From sequence record MW269952.1: 64,000 nt of DNA; one strand, 5' to 3'. Every line of letters begins with the position of its first letter. Positions within the stretch are counted from its first letter, which is position 1. A program made the translations under genes and the position numbers. The notes below the pieces were generated by a model that did not search any database, was not told the DNA's origin, and saw nothing but the letters and a program-made list of their open reading frames with translations. Below are positions 4,600 to 10,454 of the stretch, one piece after another. This DNA is from Escherichia phage P479.

Positions 4600-4933
4600 T
4601 ATCGATTTATCTGATTTAGATAATTTCGAGAAAGATGCGGAGGGAGCTAAGGCTCCTTCTGTACCTTACTACGAAAAAAGTTTGGAGATTATCCGGCAAT
4701 CCATGGGAACTGTGCGACAGGAAATTCTGTTATCACTCCCTGATGGGTCCAGTCACATTGTGTACGTAACCGGAATTAAAATTGAACCATCTGGAAAAGT
4801 TTCAGTTGATTTCGGCACCCCTTCTGAAGACCGCAAAGCGGAGCTTGCAGTGCATGTAGAAAAGTGTGTTACAATGCAAATACAAGATGAAATTGATAAG
4901 ATTAAAATGAAAAAGAGGTGGTGGAAGTGGTAG
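4589..4933 (+). CDS. 40: gp40-like protein (head vertex assembly chaperone in T4)
   Basis: 114 aa between uvsX and 41; assignment by position and size. Confidence 0.5.
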   Translation: MMNDIDLSDLDNFEKDAEGAKAPSVPYYEKSLEIIRQSMGTVRQEILLSLPDGSSHIVYVTGIKIEPSGKVSVDFGTPSEDRKAELAVHVEKCVTMQIQDEIDKIKMKKRWWKW

Positions 4934-6357
4934 AAACTATTTTATCCCAGCTACTCTTTAACAAGGAATATTTTGTTAAAGTCTGGCCATATCTGAATAA
5001 CACATATTTTGAAAAGGGTCCTGCAAAGACCCTTTTTAATACGATTAACGAACACGTAAAAGAATATCAAGCGGTACCAACTAAGACTGCACTTGATATC
5101 GCGCTCGACAGTTCTGACCTTTCTGAAGTCGAATATGAAGGCACAAAGAAACTCTTAGGAGTCCTGGCCGATACACCAGAAGACCAGGAATGGTTGGTTA
5201 AAGAAACCGAGAAGTATGTACAGAAGTCTGCGATGTTCAATGCCACATCCAGGATTATCGAAATCCAGAGTAATGCCGAACTTCCGAAAGACAAACGTGA
5301 TAAACGAATCCCGGATATTGGTGCCATCCCTGACATCATGCGCGATGCATTGTCTATCTGTTTTGACTCTGCTCTGGGCCATGACTGGTTAAACGATTAC
5401 GAAGCTCGATTCCAGACTTATCTGAACAAATCGAAGAAGGTTCCGTTCCGTATTAACATCCTGAATAAAATCACAAAGGGTGGGGTTGAGTACGGTACAG
5501 AGAATGTTTTACTGGCCGGGACGAACGTCGGCAAATCCCTTGGACTTTGTTCGTTAGCCGCTGACTATCTTCAGACTGGTCATAATGTGCTTTATATAAG
5601 CATGGAAATGGCTGAAGAAGTATGTGCCAAACGTATTGATGCCAACTTGCTGGATGTATCTCTGGATGATATTGATGAAGGTCATGTGTCATGGGCAGAA
5701 TACAAAAGTAAGATGGAAAAATGGCGCGCAGCAGGGACTCTTGGGACTCTGAAGATAAAACAATATCCAACTGGTGGTGCTCATGCGGATACCTTCCGCG
5801 CATTATTGAATGAATACAAACTGAAGCAAGGGTTTGTGCCGGATGTGATTATTGTTGACTACCTGGCAATCTGTGCAAGCTCAAGACTGAAAACGTTTAC
5901 CGAAAACAGTTACGGTCTGATTAAGATGGTTGCAGAAGAACTTCGTGGTCTGGCGGTCGAGAAAAATGTGGTCCTGTGGACTGCAGCACAGACAACCAGG
6001 GGTGCGAACGTTGCAGCTGAGATTGATATGGCTGACATTGCAGAATCCTTTGGTATTGCTCACACGGCCGACTTTATGTTGGGTGTTGTTGAGACCGAAG
6101 AATTCGCTCAAATGGGACTACAGTTAATCAAACAACTTAAGTCTCGTTATGGCGATAAGAACTACTATAATAAATTCAAGATGGGTGTTAAGAAAGGTAA
6201 TCAGCGCTGGTACGAGGTTGATGATGATTCAGCTCCTAAACAAGGCTCTACGGTTAAAGAAGCCACTGGTGAGATGAATCGCCAGGCTGAAATGAATAGA
6301 CAAACCAGGGTCAACAGGAGCGACCTGGACGACCTTGCTGCTCAAATGAAATTCTAA
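4918..6357 (+). CDS. 41: gp41 replicative DnaB-like helicase
   Basis: 479 aa; Walker A GTNVGKS; RecA-like core; T4 gp41 is ~475 aa. Confidence 0.92.
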   Translation: MVEVVETILSQLLFNKEYFVKVWPYLNNTYFEKGPAKTLFNTINEHVKEYQAVPTKTALDIALDSSDLSEVEYEGTKKLLGVLADTPEDQEWLVKETEKYVQKSAMFNATSRIIEIQSNAELPKDKRDKRIPDIGAIPDIMRDALSICFDSALGHDWLNDYEARFQTYLNKSKKVPFRINILNKITKGGVEYGTENVLLAGTNVGKSLGLCSLAADYLQTGHNVLYISMEMAEEVCAKRIDANLLDVSLDDIDEGHVSWAEYKSKMEKWRAAGTLGTLKIKQYPTGGAHADTFRALLNEYKLKQGFVPDVIIVDYLAICASSRLKTFTENSYGLIKMVAEELRGLAVEKNVVLWTAAQTTRGANVAAEIDMADIAESFGIAHTADFMLGVVETEEFAQMGLQLIKQLKSRYGDKNYYNKFKMGVKKGNQRWYEVDDDSAPKQGSTVKEATGEMNRQAEMNRQTRVNRSDLDDLAAQMKF

Positions 6358-6376
6358 AGACCTTCGGGTCTTTTTC
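6356..6376 (+). terminator. intrinsic terminator, UUCG tetraloop (after gene 41)
   Basis: AGACC-TTCG-GGTCT then TTTTT. Confidence 0.65.
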
Positions 6377-6384
6377 ATTTTAGA

Positions 6385-6446
6385 GGTTTACATCACCATA
6401 AAAAGGGTGTACTATTATCCCATCAACTACTGATGAGGATAATAAA
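6385..6446 (+). promoter_or_regulatory. early promoter-like cassette, degenerate copy
   Basis: GTTTACA and GGTGTAC then conserved leader CCATCAACTACTGATGAGGATAATAAAATG; -10 spacing atypical. Confidence 0.4.
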
Positions 6447-6695
6447 ATGTTATTAGTTAATGTGCATTACCAGTTCAAATCTGAAGAAGCTCTCCAAAAG
6501 TATGCTGATATTTGTGAGCATAATAAAAGAACAGCTGCCATTGTTGGTCTGAAGCCTTTTAAAATTTTGGATTGCTCCTTGAACAGAGCAAGGCGCTGGT
6601 GTAGTGTTGCCTGTCATGCTTCAGTTGAAGGGAATGATTATTTTTTCATTACTTTCAATGCACAAGATTTTCATTTAATTAATGAATTAAAATAG
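6447..6695 (+). CDS. hypothetical protein (82 aa)
   Basis: ORF preceded by conserved leader CCATCAACTACTGATGAGGATAATAAAATG. Confidence 0.55.
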   Translation: MLLVNVHYQFKSEEALQKYADICEHNKRTAAIVGLKPFKILDCSLNRARRWCSVACHASVEGNDYFFITFNAQDFHLINELK

Positions 6696-7076: not shown

Positions 7077-7085
7077 GTGAACAAA

Positions 7086-7137
7086 GGGGCTTACAGCCCC
7101 TTTTTCTTATGTTATAATGACCCTATCAACTACTGGA
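7086..7137 (+). promoter_or_regulatory. stem-loop with embedded -35, then TATAAT and leader box
   Basis: Hairpin GGGGCTTACAGCCCC (CTTACA in loop), TATAAT 7114-7119, box CCTATCAACTACTGGAG. Confidence 0.55.
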
Positions 7138-7144
7138 GAATAAA

Positions 7145-7462
7145 ATGAAAACCATTGATTGCAAGGCAGAATACAAAGTTTATTATCATGGGTCAAGCTC
7201 TAATGCTGGAATCCAAAATATGCTTTGTCCTCCTGATGCAACTGGTGTTCTGTCAGAAGTTGGGCGTAAGAAAAATTTAGGGCGTGTGTTTTTTACTGAA
7301 GATATTGGTTTGGCGCGTATCTATGCAGGAAGAGCAGCTCGCTCATATGGAGGAGAACCCCGTCTTTATCGTGTGATTGCACCTGTTGACGTGGTTTGTT
7401 TAAATGATACTAAAGGCGCAACAGTTTATCATGCTGCCTGGGCGTTTTGTGAGGAAATCTAA
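7145..7462 (+). CDS. hypothetical protein (105 aa) with YHGSS motif
   Basis: ORF with RBS GGAGAATAAAATG; H-G-S near N-terminus plus conserved Y and C-terminal EE. Confidence 0.55.
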   Translation: MKTIDCKAEYKVYYHGSSSNAGIQNMLCPPDATGVLSEVGRKKNLGRVFFTEDIGLARIYAGRAARSYGGEPRLYRVIAPVDVVCLNDTKGATVYHAAWAFCEEI

Positions 7463-7666
7463 ATGTATAAATTAGAGAACGTAGTGTTTATTGGTTGGTT
7501 TGAAAATGGCAATATGTTTACCAAAGAAACTGCGCTGGATGTCAGTGACAAAAATATGATTGAATGGGTTACAGTGCAGTATGCAGAAGTGAATAATGCG
7601 CTGGTTAAAGCCTTTGTTAATGATAATAAAGTTTTTGAATATGATTATCGTTCTAACGAAAAATAA
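7463..7666 (+). CDS. hypothetical protein (67 aa)
   Basis: Start abuts the stop of the 7145 ORF (TAAATG). Confidence 0.5.
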   Translation: MYKLENVVFIGWFENGNMFTKETALDVSDKNMIEWVTVQYAEVNNALVKAFVNDNKVFEYDYRSNEK

Positions 7667-7668
7667 CA

Positions 7669-7721
7669 GTTTACATCAAAGGGATAATGCTGTATATTAT
7701 CCCTATCAACTACTGAGGAGA
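7669..7721 (+). promoter_or_regulatory. early promoter plus stem-loop cassette
   Basis: GTTTACA 7669-7675; stem GGGATAAT...ATTATCCC over the -10; box TATCAACTACTGAGGAG. Confidence 0.6.
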
Positions 7722-7726
7722 TTGAA

Positions 7727-8020
7727 ATGAAAAAGTTATTAATCGCAGCAATTCTTACCGTAGCATCATGTGGTACAGCTCCAGTTACTGCTGGACTTGA
7801 TAAAGACCTTTGTGAGTGGTCTATGACCGCCGACCAGACTGATGTTGAACATCAGATTTATGCTGATATCATGAACATTACTAAACGTGACCGTCCAGAT
7901 ATGGTTAAAGAAGTATCTGACCAACTGGCTTCTGGTGACGTTATGCAGTATAACTATGTTCTGTATTGCGATGCTTCATTTGACAACAGCAAGATTGTTC
8001 AATGGGTTACAGGTGAATAA
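7727..8020 (+). CDS. putative lipoprotein
   Basis: Signal peptide with lipobox VASCG. Confidence 0.55.
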   Translation: MKKLLIAAILTVASCGTAPVTAGLDKDLCEWSMTADQTDVEHQIYADIMNITKRDRPDMVKEVSDQLASGDVMQYNYVLYCDASFDNSKIVQWVTGE

Positions 8021-8021
8021 A

Positions 8022-8459
8022 ATGATTAACAGAACTTTAGTTATCAAAAAACTTCGTTGTAAAAATCAAAATGCACAAGCATACAGGATGTTTTGGAGCG
8101 ACGAAATTCAATACCTGGGTTATTTTCTTGTTGATAGTGATAATAGAATTACGTTTGCTCATAAACTTCTTAACAAAGAATTAAACCATTGGCAAGAACT
8201 TATTGCGGTCAAGTCTAAATTATTTTCGCGCAATACAATGCACCAATTGGTTTATTTTTTCGCTGACGGTATTCCCGACAAGGTTGAGTTTGACGGGTTT
8301 GAATTTAAAGACATCAACCCTGATAATGAATTGAATGGCAGTATTGTTAATATGGGTATCCCAGGTAAGTACATCAAAAACAGTCTTTTGAAACTTCTGG
8401 AAACCCCTGTTTATTCAGTTGATGACCAGATTTTTAATGCCTTCATGAAGCGAGATTAG
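8022..8459 (+). CDS. hypothetical protein (146 aa)
   Basis: In-frame ATG at 8022 just after the previous stop (track ORF starts upstream at 7887); C-terminus DDQIFNAFMKRD. Confidence 0.5.
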   Translation: MINRTLVIKKLRCKNQNAQAYRMFWSDEIQYLGYFLVDSDNRITFAHKLLNKELNHWQELIAVKSKLFSRNTMHQLVYFFADGIPDKVEFDGFEFKDINPDNELNGSIVNMGIPGKYIKNSLLKLLETPVYSVDDQIFNAFMKRD

Positions 8460-8460
8460 T

Positions 8461-8817
8461 ATGAGTTATTATAATTTTCTGAATTTTGAACTGGCGAGCA
8501 ATAATGATGGTAATGCCCATTATGAATTCCGTGAGCCTCGGTTTAATCAGGCGATTGGTTATATTATCGTCAAAGATGATGTTATCATAAAGGCTCGCTC
8601 ATTCATGGTAATGAATGGACCTTATGAAGATACTCGCGGCTATCCATTTGATAAAAAGAATGTGCGCGATTGTGCAGCATGGATAACCGGAAACCCTGAA
8701 ATTGGGGTCATGATATCTACTGAAGCGAATGACATTCTGGAAGGGGTCGTCAAAGCTCAAGAACCGCCTACTGATATTGATGACCAGATTTTTAATGCCT
8801 TCATGAAGCGAGGTTGA
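8461..8817 (+). CDS. hypothetical protein (118 aa)
   Basis: ORF; C-terminus DDQIFNAFMKRG encoded by a 36-bp copy of the preceding gene's 3' end. Confidence 0.5.
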   Translation: MSYYNFLNFELASNNDGNAHYEFREPRFNQAIGYIIVKDDVIIKARSFMVMNGPYEDTRGYPFDKKNVRDCAAWITGNPEIGVMISTEANDILEGVVKAQEPPTDIDDQIFNAFMKRG

Positions 8818-8818
8818 T

Positions 8819-9040
8819 ATGTATGTTTTGACCCAATTCTCTAAAGCAATATATAGTTACTCTTGCCAGTGGGAAGTCTTTATTGATACCCCTTCGCCTA
8901 AGTATGGTGTTTTTGGGCGAGTAACTACGCAAGCTTACGTTGCGCGACCGACTAAACGTCAGATTCGTAAACTTAAAAAGGCACATCGTCAATTGATTAA
9001 AAGAAGGGAACAATATGAGTGCAATGTGTACGGGCTCTAA
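8819..9040 (+). CDS. hypothetical basic protein (73 aa)
   Basis: ORF, Lys/Arg-rich C-terminal half. Confidence 0.45.
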   Translation: MYVLTQFSKAIYSYSCQWEVFIDTPSPKYGVFGRVTTQAYVARPTKRQIRKLKKAHRQLIKRREQYECNVYGL

Positions 9041-9206
9041 GATTTCTGTCTTCCAGATTTTTGAAGAATATGAAATCGTGTCGCAAGACCAAGAAGCAAT
9101 CCATGTTATCGCTGATGATGGGGTTACCTGGATTATTCCGTTGTATCATGAAGACACTTATGAAGTGACTGATGCAAATGGTGATAAAGCTATCTTCGTT
9201 GTATAA
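9015..9206 (+). CDS. hypothetical acidic protein (63 aa)
   Basis: ORF overlapping the previous one. Confidence 0.4.
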   Translation: MSAMCTGSKISVFQIFEEYEIVSQDQEAIHVIADDGVTWIIPLYHEDTYEVTDANGDKAIFVV

Positions 9207-9209
9207 ATA
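9202..9209 (+). promoter_or_regulatory. late-promoter motif TATAAATA upstream of the 9226 ORF
   Basis: Exact TATAAATA 17 nt before ATG 9226. Confidence 0.4.
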
Positions 9210-9225
9210 GCGGAAAGGGGGTGTT

Positions 9226-9393
9226 ATGAAAACATTCAAAGATTTTATCAACGAAAATATGGTTGCCGGTGATGCAGGTGGAAACCCAACTAATATCGCA
9301 ACAGGTACCACTTCCGGGGCAGTTGTCAATAAAGGCCCTGAACAAATCCCATCAAAAAAGCGTAAGAACAAAGACGATAAACCTACAGTATAA
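9226..9393 (+). CDS. hypothetical protein (55 aa), possibly late-expressed
   Basis: RBS AAAGGGGGTG; exact TATAAATA 17 nt upstream; not in ORF track. Confidence 0.4.
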   Translation: MKTFKDFINENMVAGDAGGNPTNIATGTTSGAVVNKGPEQIPSKKRKNKDDKPTV

Positions 9394-9410
9394 TGGTCCT
9401 TCGGGGCCAT
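9393..9410 (+). other. imperfect stem-loop before gene 61
   Basis: ATGGTCC-TTCG-GGGCCAT, one mismatch, no T tract. Confidence 0.35.
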
Positions 9411-9425
9411 TGAAATGAGGAAACT

Positions 9426-10454
9426 ATGTCATATATTGATAAAGAATTTGCAGTCAGAGCTTTATCGTATCAACCACGTTATAGAGAAGTCACCGGGAGC
9501 ACATTTAAAGCAAACTGTCGTTGCAAGGTTTGTGGGGACTCCCAGAAAGATTCACACAAGGCTCGATTCTGGGCGTATACTAATCCGGCTGATGGCGCGG
9601 TTTACGTGAAATGTTTTAACTGTGACTACTCCACGCATATAAGCAAATACATAAAAGAGTTTGAGCCTGATTTACACCGGGAATATATGGTTGAGAAGTA
9701 CAAGGAGAACGCCTTCGGGCGACAACGTAATGAAGTTGCAGAAGCTCCGAAAGAACCAGAAAAAACTCCGGTTATCGAACAGCTTGCTTTTTGTGAAAGA
9801 CTCGATACTTTACCAGAAGCACATCCGATAGTTAAGTATGTAAAAAGTCGATGTATTCCAAGCAATGTTTGGAACCGACTATGGTTTACAAACCAATGGC
9901 CTGCATTAGTTAACTCCGTTAATCCTGGGACGTATAAGAATGAAACGAATGAACCACGCTTGGTTATTCCTATCTTCAACGGCAAAAAAGAAATCGAATC
10001 TTTCCAAGGACGAGCTCTTCGCAAAGATGCACCACAAAAATATATCACAATCAAAGCTCACCCAGAAGCTTCCAAAGTCTATGGCGTAGACAAGATTGAT
10101 GAGCGTAAACGCGTATGGGTAATGGAAGGTCCGATTGATAGTTTGTTTATCCCTAACAGCATTGCGATAACTGGTGGAACATTGTCATTGGAAGCCGTTC
10201 CTTATCCAGAAACCAGAGTATGGGTAATGGACAACGAACCAAGACATCCGGATACGATTAAACGTATGAAGAAGCTCGTTGAAGCTGGCGAAGCTGTTAT
10301 GTTCTGGGACAATGCACCATGGCATACGAAAGACATAAATGAGATGGTTAAATCAGAAGGAGCAACCCCTGAACAAATCGAATCATATATGGCCGATAAC
10401 GTTGCTCAAGGATTGATGGCGAGAATGCGACTTTCGAAGTACGCAAAAGTTTAG
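9426..10454 (+). CDS. 61: gp61 DNA primase
   Basis: 342 aa (same as T4 gp61); zinc ribbon CRCKVCGD...CFNCDYS; TOPRIM-like EGPIDSL. Confidence 0.9.
   Translation: MSYIDKEFAVRALSYQPRYREVTGSTFKANCRCKVCGDSQKDSHKARFWAYTNPADGAVYVKCFNCDYSTHISKYIKEFEPDLHREYMVEKYKENAFGRQRNEVAEAPKEPEKTPVIEQLAFCERLDTLPEAHPIVKYVKSRCIPSNVWNRLWFTNQWPALVNSVNPGTYKNETNEPRLVIPIFNGKKEIESFQGRALRKDAPQKYITIKAHPEASKVYGVDKIDERKRVWVMEGPIDSLFIPNSIAITGGTLSLEAVPYPETRVWVMDNEPRHPDTIKRMKKLVEAGEAVMFWDNAPWHTKDINEMVKSEGATPEQIESYMADNVAQGLMARMRLSKYAKV

Follow-up and report, generated by a model that had tools for sequence, protein, structure and literature searches.

In a 64,000-nucleotide stretch of the genome of Escherichia phage P479 (sequence record MW269952.1), referred to here as the window, two adjacent open reading frames (ORFs), ORF1 (8022-8459) and ORF2 (8461-8817), end in the same 36-nucleotide (nt) direct repeat and carry the same C-terminal peptide tail. 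In the simplest reading, this tail has been inherited within one fast-evolving gene family, the superfamily of the anti-DarT factor AdfA, while the identity of its DNA has been refreshed by recombination between copies. ORF1 and ORF2 would be diverged tandem AdfA-superfamily paralogs that keep the tail helix of the family, and the repeat would be a substrate for unequal recombination; a probability of roughly 0.7 is assigned to this reading.

A scan of the window returned the repeat, TTGATGACCAGATTTTTAATGCCTTCATGAAGCGAG, as two exact plus-strand copies without any mismatch, at 8419-8454 and 8777-8812, encoding the last residues (V)DDQIFNAFMKR(D) of ORF1 and (I)DDQIFNAFMKR(G) of ORF2, respectively. 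The 145 amino acids (aa) of ORF1, read from an ATG start, end in ...VYSVDDQIFNAFMKRD and the 118 aa of ORF2 in ...TDIDDQIFNAFMKRG, in each case directly before the stop codon. Shuffling the sequence 100 times with dinucleotides preserved produced no match to the 36-nt sequence, even at a tolerance of three mismatches. Similarity between the two sites spans 45 nt at 93% identity (8419-8463 and 8777-8821, both on the plus strand) and thereby takes in the stop codon, one spacer nucleotide and the ATG that opens the following gene, namely TAG and the start of ORF2 behind copy 1, and TGA and the start of a tifA-like gene behind copy 2. The last tail codons of copy 1 hold GCGAGA at the place expected for the ribosome-binding site of the next gene, and GAGG in the last codons of copy 2 could be the Shine-Dalgarno sequence of the gene that follows. 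Numerous phages that were sequenced independently keep both ORFs, which rules out an assembly artefact. The repeat is real and more than chance, so that the claim of an earlier note made from the sequence alone, two copies each closing a gene, was borne out.

The tail, DDQIFNAFM(K/N)(R/K)(G/D), forms the conserved C-terminal end of the anti-DarT factor AdfA, gp61.2 of T4 (Pfam PF23813), which itself ends in ...NVSIDDQIFNAFMNRG, followed by the TAAT-ATG of gene 61.1. Pfam contains no match for ORF1, and a single sub-threshold one for ORF2, in which its last 14 residues align with positions 198-211 of the 211 positions of PF23813; with 20.6 bits from the tail only, the gathering threshold of 27 bits is not reached. 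Both proteins belong to PHROG families of their own, matching full-length hidden Markov models (HMMs) of phrog_8539 (ORF1, E 5.4e-92) and phrog_4122 (ORF2, E 2.1e-52), and the cross-matches of ORF1 and ORF2 between these families run through the tail only. In the same PHROG scan, the tail also matches the end of a 210-position family. Compared with the features of AdfA proteins, the C-terminal motif (I/V)DDQIFNAFM(N/K)(R/K)G is present in both, save that ORF1 closes with D instead of G, and both occupy the position directly downstream of sp in the early region between genes 41 and 61, ORF2 being the second gene in this slot. The length of about 208-216 aa with two tandem domains is not found, as ORF1 and ORF2 have 145 and 118 aa and one domain each. 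In T2, the protein called "gp61.2" is a different, short one of 108-118 aa, which is 47% identical to ORF2 and has the same ending. Proteins of this T2 type pass the PF23813 gathering score (32 versus 27 bits, positions 112-211), while T2 is treated in the literature as naturally lacking an adfA homologue (PMC11257639).

The range of tail carriers was surveyed by exact-peptide scans of DNA from IMG/VR, metagenome contigs and 185,579 bacterial and archaeal species genomes (one per species), with subsequent extraction of the ORFs. Apart from a few chance internal matches (an aminotransferase, a histidine-kinase-like protein and non-coding frames), these yielded only T4-like contigs, in which the motif is C-terminal throughout and stands three residues before the stop codon. 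Carriers include at least AdfA (208-216 aa), the T2 type, the ORF2 type, the ORF1 type and the proteins P0035 (143 aa), P0049 (125 aa) and P0052 (120 aa); relatives thus bear the tail on at least six types of protein body, and all carriers with available genomic context lie directly after sp. Among INPHARED records, the ORF1 body is found in 85, the ORF2/T2-type body in 332 (33 of them ORF2 proper) and the AdfA body in 487. About 30 phage genomes, each sequenced independently, show the arrangement with two tail copies, as do metagenome contigs, and a pair of AdfA and T2-type genes is common in Tequatrovirus. No further paralogs of the family were found in the window, and an exhaustive HMMER search of 1.84 billion representatives gave only seven matches, with no new tail-bearing family and without reaching the ORF1 type.

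P0041, a member of the ORF2 family, is labelled by one source as coming from a metagenome-assembled genome of Limosilactobacillus reuteri, and is most likely derived from a T4-like coliphage contig binned into it. On metagenome contig OBRI01000039.1 (L036, 673-1549), ORF1 is followed by an ORF2 with a different N-terminus (MYIQSDLSYLNFELV...), which runs directly into a phrog_3249-type gene (MTAMCTGSK...), the tifA-like gene being skipped; thus, the tail junction precedes yet another downstream gene here.

Conservation of the tail resides in the peptide. The 49 tail copies compared represent 22 DNA haplotypes, and within the DDQIFNAFM codons seven sites vary, all seven synonymously and none nonsynonymously. 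Seven of the eight tail codons open to synonymous change do vary between lineages. Representative proteins retrieved by homology, some only 27% identical, likewise show no change of the motif in their alignments, and elsewhere in the set the sole exceptions are D-to-E and M-to-L. Since the motif holds in homology-found proteins as well and the codon variation is synonymous, selection acts on the tail peptide. At the nucleotide level, a stop codon, one nucleotide and an ATG follow the tail in 49 of 49 copies, with GAGG or GAGA in the last tail codons 7-10 nt before the next start. An RNA element at the repeat was rejected, as folding of both junctions is no better than that of shuffled sequences (z = +0.7) and an Rfam scan returned nothing relevant at the repeat. 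A promoter was rejected likewise, the sole overlapping match being a weak 9-of-12 minus-strand site at the level of the shuffled background. No terminator-like site overlaps either copy.

Beyond the tail, ORF1 and ORF2 had been described as unrelated. This stands for plain BLASTP, in which only the last 27 residues align, but probably not at the level of the fold. The AlphaFold2 model of ORF1, with a predicted local distance difference test score (pLDDT) of 70, contains E5-11, E19-25, E30-37, E42-51, E56-59, H70-81, E87-91, H116-125 and H133-142 (E, strand; H, helix), and that of ORF2 (pLDDT 81) contains E6-15, E18-25, E30-38, E41-47, E55-57, H65-76, E82-85, H87-100 and H106-115. Both models thus have the element order b-b-b-b-b-a-b-a-linker-a. 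For ORF1, a b5-a-b fold is predicted, followed by a long segment of pLDDT <50 with a short helix and then the tail helix, and for ORF2 a b5-a-b-a fold with a short linker and the tail helix. In both cases the tail is a separate helix of low confidence (pLDDT ~50), and the linker between body and tail helix, likewise of low confidence, is probably flexible. When the ORF1 model was compared with BFVD by Foldseek, the sole significant match beyond its own orthologue was an entry identical to ORF2 (E 1.5e-5, TMt 0.52). Conversely, the ORF2 model matched the ORF1 homologue of VR25 (E 1.5e-4, TMq 0.57), together with two further proteins, one of 157 aa from a Yersinia phage and one of 212 aa, presumably of the AdfA type. 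The template modelling (TM) scores of 0.43-0.57 in these reciprocal matches cannot be attributed to a 12-residue helix alone.

Profile comparisons point in the same direction. With broader alignments and reversed controls (a run with shallow alignments was uninformative), hhalign of tail-trimmed families gave P-values of 6e-4 to 3e-2 and probabilities of 1.5-29%, compared with P 0.03-0.9 for the reversed controls, and every time the hG(Y/F)IhVxDxxI hairpin and helix a1 were in register. A tail-trimmed HMM of the short family gave scores of 10-23 bits for AdfA bodies, with in-register matches to either half, and of 8.6 bits for P0035, a divergent ORF1 relative. Against 200 shuffles of each sequence, four of five AdfA bodies and P0035 ranked above all, whereas the fifth AdfA tied with the best shuffle. 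In the HMMER search of 1.84 billion representatives, AdfA was matched at 48.7 bits in two stretches. The BLASTP match between T2 gp61.2 and the C-terminal half of AdfA (E 3e-9) draws its score mostly from the tail and was not used alone for body homology. No solved structures of ORF1, ORF2, the T2 type or AdfA were found. Element order, Foldseek and hhalign speak in favour of a shared b5-a-b-a core with hairpin, linker and tail helix, while the ORF1 scores from sequence only are not significant. It is quite probable that ORF1, ORF2, the T2 type and both AdfA halves derive from one domain, of which AdfA appears to hold two copies and ORF1 and ORF2 one each; ORF1 is a probable single-domain member of the AdfA superfamily.

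Why both copies match at the DNA level is a separate matter. The synonymous states of the tail follow the phage lineage and not the gene body. AdfA and T2-type tails of Tequatrovirus have CAA/GCT/TTT/AAT/AGA in common and are identical in T4 and T2, ORF1 and ORF2 tails of Gaprivervirus and Dhakavirus have CAG/GCC and CGA in common, and the AdfA tail of Mosigvirus-like phages has ATA/GCA. Within a genome, the two tails of a pair differ at 1-6 of 39 positions, a count that comprises the repeat plus the preceding codon and the final D/G codon, the 36-nt repeat itself being identical in the pair of the window. A GAT/GAC polymorphism affects either copy in different Gapriverviruses. In concerted evolution, a segment of adjacent paralogs stays identical within a genome while diverging between lineages. 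The pattern observed here suggests such concerted evolution or a repeated recombinational resetting of the tail.

The repeat also coincides with the boundaries of gene gain and loss, which favours the idea of recombination at the repeat raised in the earlier note. In Dhakavirus E33, the order is sp, ORF1 and tifA-like gene with a single tail, and the alignment gap starts and ends inside the repeat. The Gaprivervirus VR26 has no ORF2, although its flanks are identical to those of VR7; its junction matches copy 1 of VR7 through TTAATATG and then passes into the gene that lies behind copy 2. There are hence relatives with one gene and one repeat copy, and the contrary picture, a tail on only one of the two genes with no boundary at the repeat, was not encountered in relatives. 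T4 corresponds to the AdfA plus T2-type arrangement of contigs L040 and L022 minus the T2-type gene, with the boundaries in the two tails. T2 (L006, 1415-1474), in turn, keeps 14 nt, TAGAGGTTAGTATG, of the end of the AdfA tail directly after the sp stop codon. Whether each event was a deletion or an insertion cannot be told, as unequal crossing-over yields both products. For T4, both acquisition and loss of DNA via short homologies are documented in this region (PMC9391042). E33, VR26 compared with VR7, and T4 compared with AdfA plus T2-type genomes are, on the sequence evidence, three natural cases in which a coding repeat is the breakpoint for the clean gain or loss of an anti-defence gene.

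These results can be combined as follows. The slot after sp in T-even-type phages would be hypervariable, and ORF1 and ORF2 would represent very diverged tandem paralogs within it. Every member of the AdfA superfamily would end in the short C-terminal helix DDQIFNAFM(K/N)(R/K)(G/D), linked to its body, and the repeat would owe its existence to strong peptide-level selection, under which this family motif has been retained in both paralogs. Identity of the tail DNA may stem from gene conversion, from unequal crossing-over of neighbouring copies or from repeated exchange among co-infecting phages, with a minor contribution from the last tail codons, which may double as ribosome-binding site for the gene behind them. 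Homologous recombination at the repeat, its substrate, would then allow the downstream paralog to be removed or added as a clean in-frame cassette. With respect to function, T4 gp61.2/AdfA, the characterised member of the superfamily, binds and neutralises the toxin DarT1. AdfA(R164H) of RB69 binds DarT1 directly, and residue 164 decides on binding (PMC11257639). The site lies in NNIN[R/H]IASVY and, in a weak hhalign alignment, coincides with helix a1 of both proteins, the equivalent segments being residues 63-76 of ORF2 and 68-81 of ORF1. ORF1 and ORF2 are therefore proposed to be toxin-binding counter-defence proteins, possibly with diverged specificity, and the invariant C-terminal helix might serve a function common to all members, such as docking to a shared partner, oligomerisation or stability.

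Several observations weigh against this interpretation. The absence of nonsynonymous changes in the 49 tail copies is partly a matter of ascertainment, because the pattern scans required the peptide. Lineage-specific codon bias may partly explain the synonymous states, those of Gaprivervirus and Dhakavirus all being the G/C-ending alternatives. The helical hydrophobic moment of the tail does not differ from that of shuffled sequences (p 0.32), so no amphipathicity is claimed, and the pLDDT of the tail helix is low at about 50. The Foldseek E-values are inflated by the identical tail, the root-mean-square deviations are large, and the ORF1 model is of moderate confidence (pLDDT 70). For the ORF1 body versus ORF2, hhalign probabilities are weak at only 6-29%. 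The ORF1 body of the window scores only 0.1 bits on the tail-trimmed short-family HMM, and the ORF1-trimmed HMM ranks ORF2 third of 697 segments with a non-significant E-value of 0.26.

In an alternative reading, the bodies are truly unrelated and the tail is a portable module or a scar. Here, the 36-45 nt tail together with the stop-N-ATG would act as a backbone linker for the insertion, swap and deletion of cassettes between co-infecting T-even phages, the peptide being a by-product or an acquired tag. Such a linker would account for indel breakpoints within the repeat, for tail DNA that tracks the phage lineage and not the body, and for a tail that stands before five different downstream genes and after at least six body types. 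It would also fit the AdfA and T2-type genes of Tequatrovirus, which have an identical tail plus downstream sequence, as well as the non-significant similarity of ORF1 and ORF2 beyond the tail in BLASTP and HMMER. Yet the models have a common order of secondary structure and are reciprocal structural best matches with TM ~0.5, the short-family profile picks up the AdfA halves and P0035 even when the tail is left out, and the 5' side of the cassettes has no conserved linker of a comparable kind. Moreover, codons vary between lineages while the peptide is invariant, which indicates selection on the protein and not on a DNA site. This alternative is consequently rated as improbable. As to the portable interaction or targeting tag envisaged in the earlier note, the conservation of the peptide despite varying codons on at least six bodies fits a functional C-terminal motif; that the tag was transplanted onto unrelated proteins most likely does not apply, because all carriers occupy the same slot after sp, the models match and the short-family profile recognises both AdfA halves without the tail.

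A related and doubtful, albeit somewhat less unlikely, possibility is that the tail serves as a portable docking motif for toxin-binding anti-defence proteins (AdfA, T2-type gp61.2, ORF1, ORF2 and others), bringing them to one partner, e.g. a replisome- or single-stranded DNA-associated factor where DarT-like toxins act, or to each other, while the tail plus stop-N-ATG provides an in-frame cassette boundary for stacking, swapping and shedding inhibitors. If so, the tail would be the coding-sequence counterpart of PeSL (promoter early stem-loop) or attC-type shuffling sites. The idea of a single partner to which the tail helix would dock every member of the family is speculative; QIFNAF is presumably only loosely similar to clamp-binding or PIP-box motifs, and this likeness, too, is speculation. 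Far less credit is given to a nucleotide-level element, in which the repeat would be kept as translation-initiation region with a standby site, Shine-Dalgarno sequence or coupling signal, as RNA structure or as protein-binding site for the next gene and the peptide would be a side effect. The invariable stop, single nucleotide and ATG after 49 of 49 tails with GAGG/GAGA 7-10 nt before the start, and a published T4 adfA deletion (61.2 delta 65-196) that spares exactly the 12 tail codons, would agree with it. However, the need for a ribosome-binding site covers at most the last 3-4 codons and not DDQIFNAF, seven of eight synonymously variable codons do vary between lineages without amino-acid change, and neither RNA structure (z = +0.7 at both junctions) nor an Rfam match was detected. 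Chance similarity or an assembly or duplication artefact, for which only the short length of the repeat speaks, has a negligible probability and is already refuted by the lack of shuffle matches and by the recurrence of the two-copy arrangement in metagenome contigs and about 30 phage genomes. The preferred reading remains that the tail was inherited within the AdfA superfamily, with recombination between its copies.

The window is that of a T4-like phage of the Gaprivervirus group, with 98.5% identity to phage CJ20 over 7400-9500 and 95-97% to SP18, RZ and VR20. Gene order starts with the gp41 helicase gene (4918-6357), followed by a goF-like gene (6447-6695), two small ORFs and dmd (7463-7666, plus strand), which encodes an antitoxin against RnlA/LsoA and marks the "anti-TA (toxin-antitoxin) island". 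A sigma-70-like early-type promoter match (7670-7698, plus strand), which is a consensus match only, lies upstream of sp (spackle; 7727-8020, plus strand), the conserved left neighbour of the tail-gene slot in all T4-like phages examined. In this slot, ORF1 (plus strand, phrog_8539, i.e. the JS98 ORF030c/VR7ORF039c type) starts 1 nt past the sp stop codon, ORF2 (plus strand) follows, and 1 nt past its stop a DUF7279 gene begins (8819-9040, plus strand), the product of which is a homologue of the ToxN inhibitor T4 gp61.4/TifA (39% identity, E 8e-14). Two small genes separate the latter from primase gene 61 (gp61, 9426-10454). Because the genes from sp onward are only 1 nt apart, they probably form a single early transcript with coupled translation, and, judged by its sequence, the promoter at 7670-7698 likely marks the start of a sp-ORF1-ORF2-tifA-like transcript. 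The region of dmd, tifA and adfA has been termed a possible "anti-TA island" by Srikant et al. (PMC9391042), and with a TifA homologue in the DUF7279 gene this designation extends to the region studied here.

Several further features surround the slot. The tifA gene lies between dmd and sp in T4, a DUF7279 gene precedes sp in contigs L045 and L047, and the VR7 annotation has gp61.4-like genes on both sides of sp; the position of the tifA-like gene therefore changes within the island. An extra gene of about 340 bp is located between dmd and sp in several close relatives, among them phages 212, TH15 and UPEC01 (L002, phage 212, 1777-2118) and is absent from the window (7667-7726), representing another presence/absence polymorphism of the island that is unrelated to the tail repeat. 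In the record of CJ20 (L001), ORF1 is annotated from an upstream GTG as a protein of 190 aa overlapping sp (window 7887-8459), and a minus-strand coding sequence of 137 aa (window 8997-9410) overlaps three small, conserved genes of the plus strand. Both annotations are probably artefacts, because phage 212 and VR7 annotate the ATG at the 8022 position and the plus-strand genes. Finally, a 27-nt direct repeat of 78% identity connects dmd (7548-7574, NMIEWVTVQ) with the last codons of sp (7986-8012, KIVQWVTGE and stop) and may be due to chance.

Taken together, the finding refines the annotation and the evolution of a known counter-defence locus, including single-domain AdfA relatives such as that of T2, and adds no new kind of biology or mechanism. 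From the analysis, AdfA appears to be the two-domain version of a broader family of single-domain proteins, with T2 gp61.2, ORF2 (~33 phage records) and ORF1 (85 records) among its members, in which the 12-residue C-terminal helix is the sole invariant feature of proteins otherwise diverged beyond recognition. Uncharacterised genes in the "anti-TA island" of dmd, tifA and adfA are prime candidates for inhibitors of bacterial toxins. Hence, the main value lies in annotation and in a sharply defined motif for testing how AdfA works.

Among known systems, AdfA itself (T4 gp61.2, RB69 AdfA, PF23813) is the closest, with the ending IDDQIFNAFM(N/K)RG and the slot directly after sp in the early "anti-TA island". 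In contrast to AdfA, ORF1 and ORF2 are single-domain proteins below the Pfam threshold. The homogenisation of the tail resembles the concerted evolution of tandem paralogs in that a segment is identical within genomes and divergent between lineages. It differs from the usual case in that only ~40 nt at the 3' end are homogenised, while the remainder of the genes has diverged beyond sequence recognition.

A further parallel is PeSL shuffling in T4-type phages, where short repeats in hyperplastic regions are recombination points for small non-essential genes (Arbiol et al. 2010, PMC2839356; Comeau et al. 2014, PMC4122927). Both offer short repeated sequences at which small genes can be inserted, deleted or replaced. 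PeSLs, however, are intergenic and consist of a sigma-70 early promoter and a stem-loop terminator, whereas the tail repeat is coding (the last 12 codons), conserved as a peptide and devoid of a stem-loop, a terminator or a promoter above background, and does not qualify as a PeSL cassette. PeSL-like elements do occur nearby (6356-6447, 7083-7150 and 7670-7730), away from the tail junction. They contain a 34-nt direct-repeat family (6414-6447, 7117-7150 and 7697-7730) with the core CCC(T)ATCAACTACTG...GAGGA...ATG, each copy of which lies directly behind a sigma-70-like -10 box and extends into the start codon of a gene (at 6447, 7145 and 7727, respectively). Terminator-like stem-loops (6356-6373 and 7083-7103) precede two of the three copies, and by sequence the elements resemble PeSL-type cassettes of promoter and stem-loop that carry a conserved leader.

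The amplification of dmd-tifA in T4 via short homology (Srikant et al. 2022, PMC9391042) takes place in the same neighbourhood, and there, too, direct repeats flank the gained or lost unit and one copy is left at the junction. In that laboratory case, the homologies are fortuitous microhomologies of 6-10 bp, whereas the tail repeat measures 36-45 bp, is maintained in natural populations and is coding in both paralogs.

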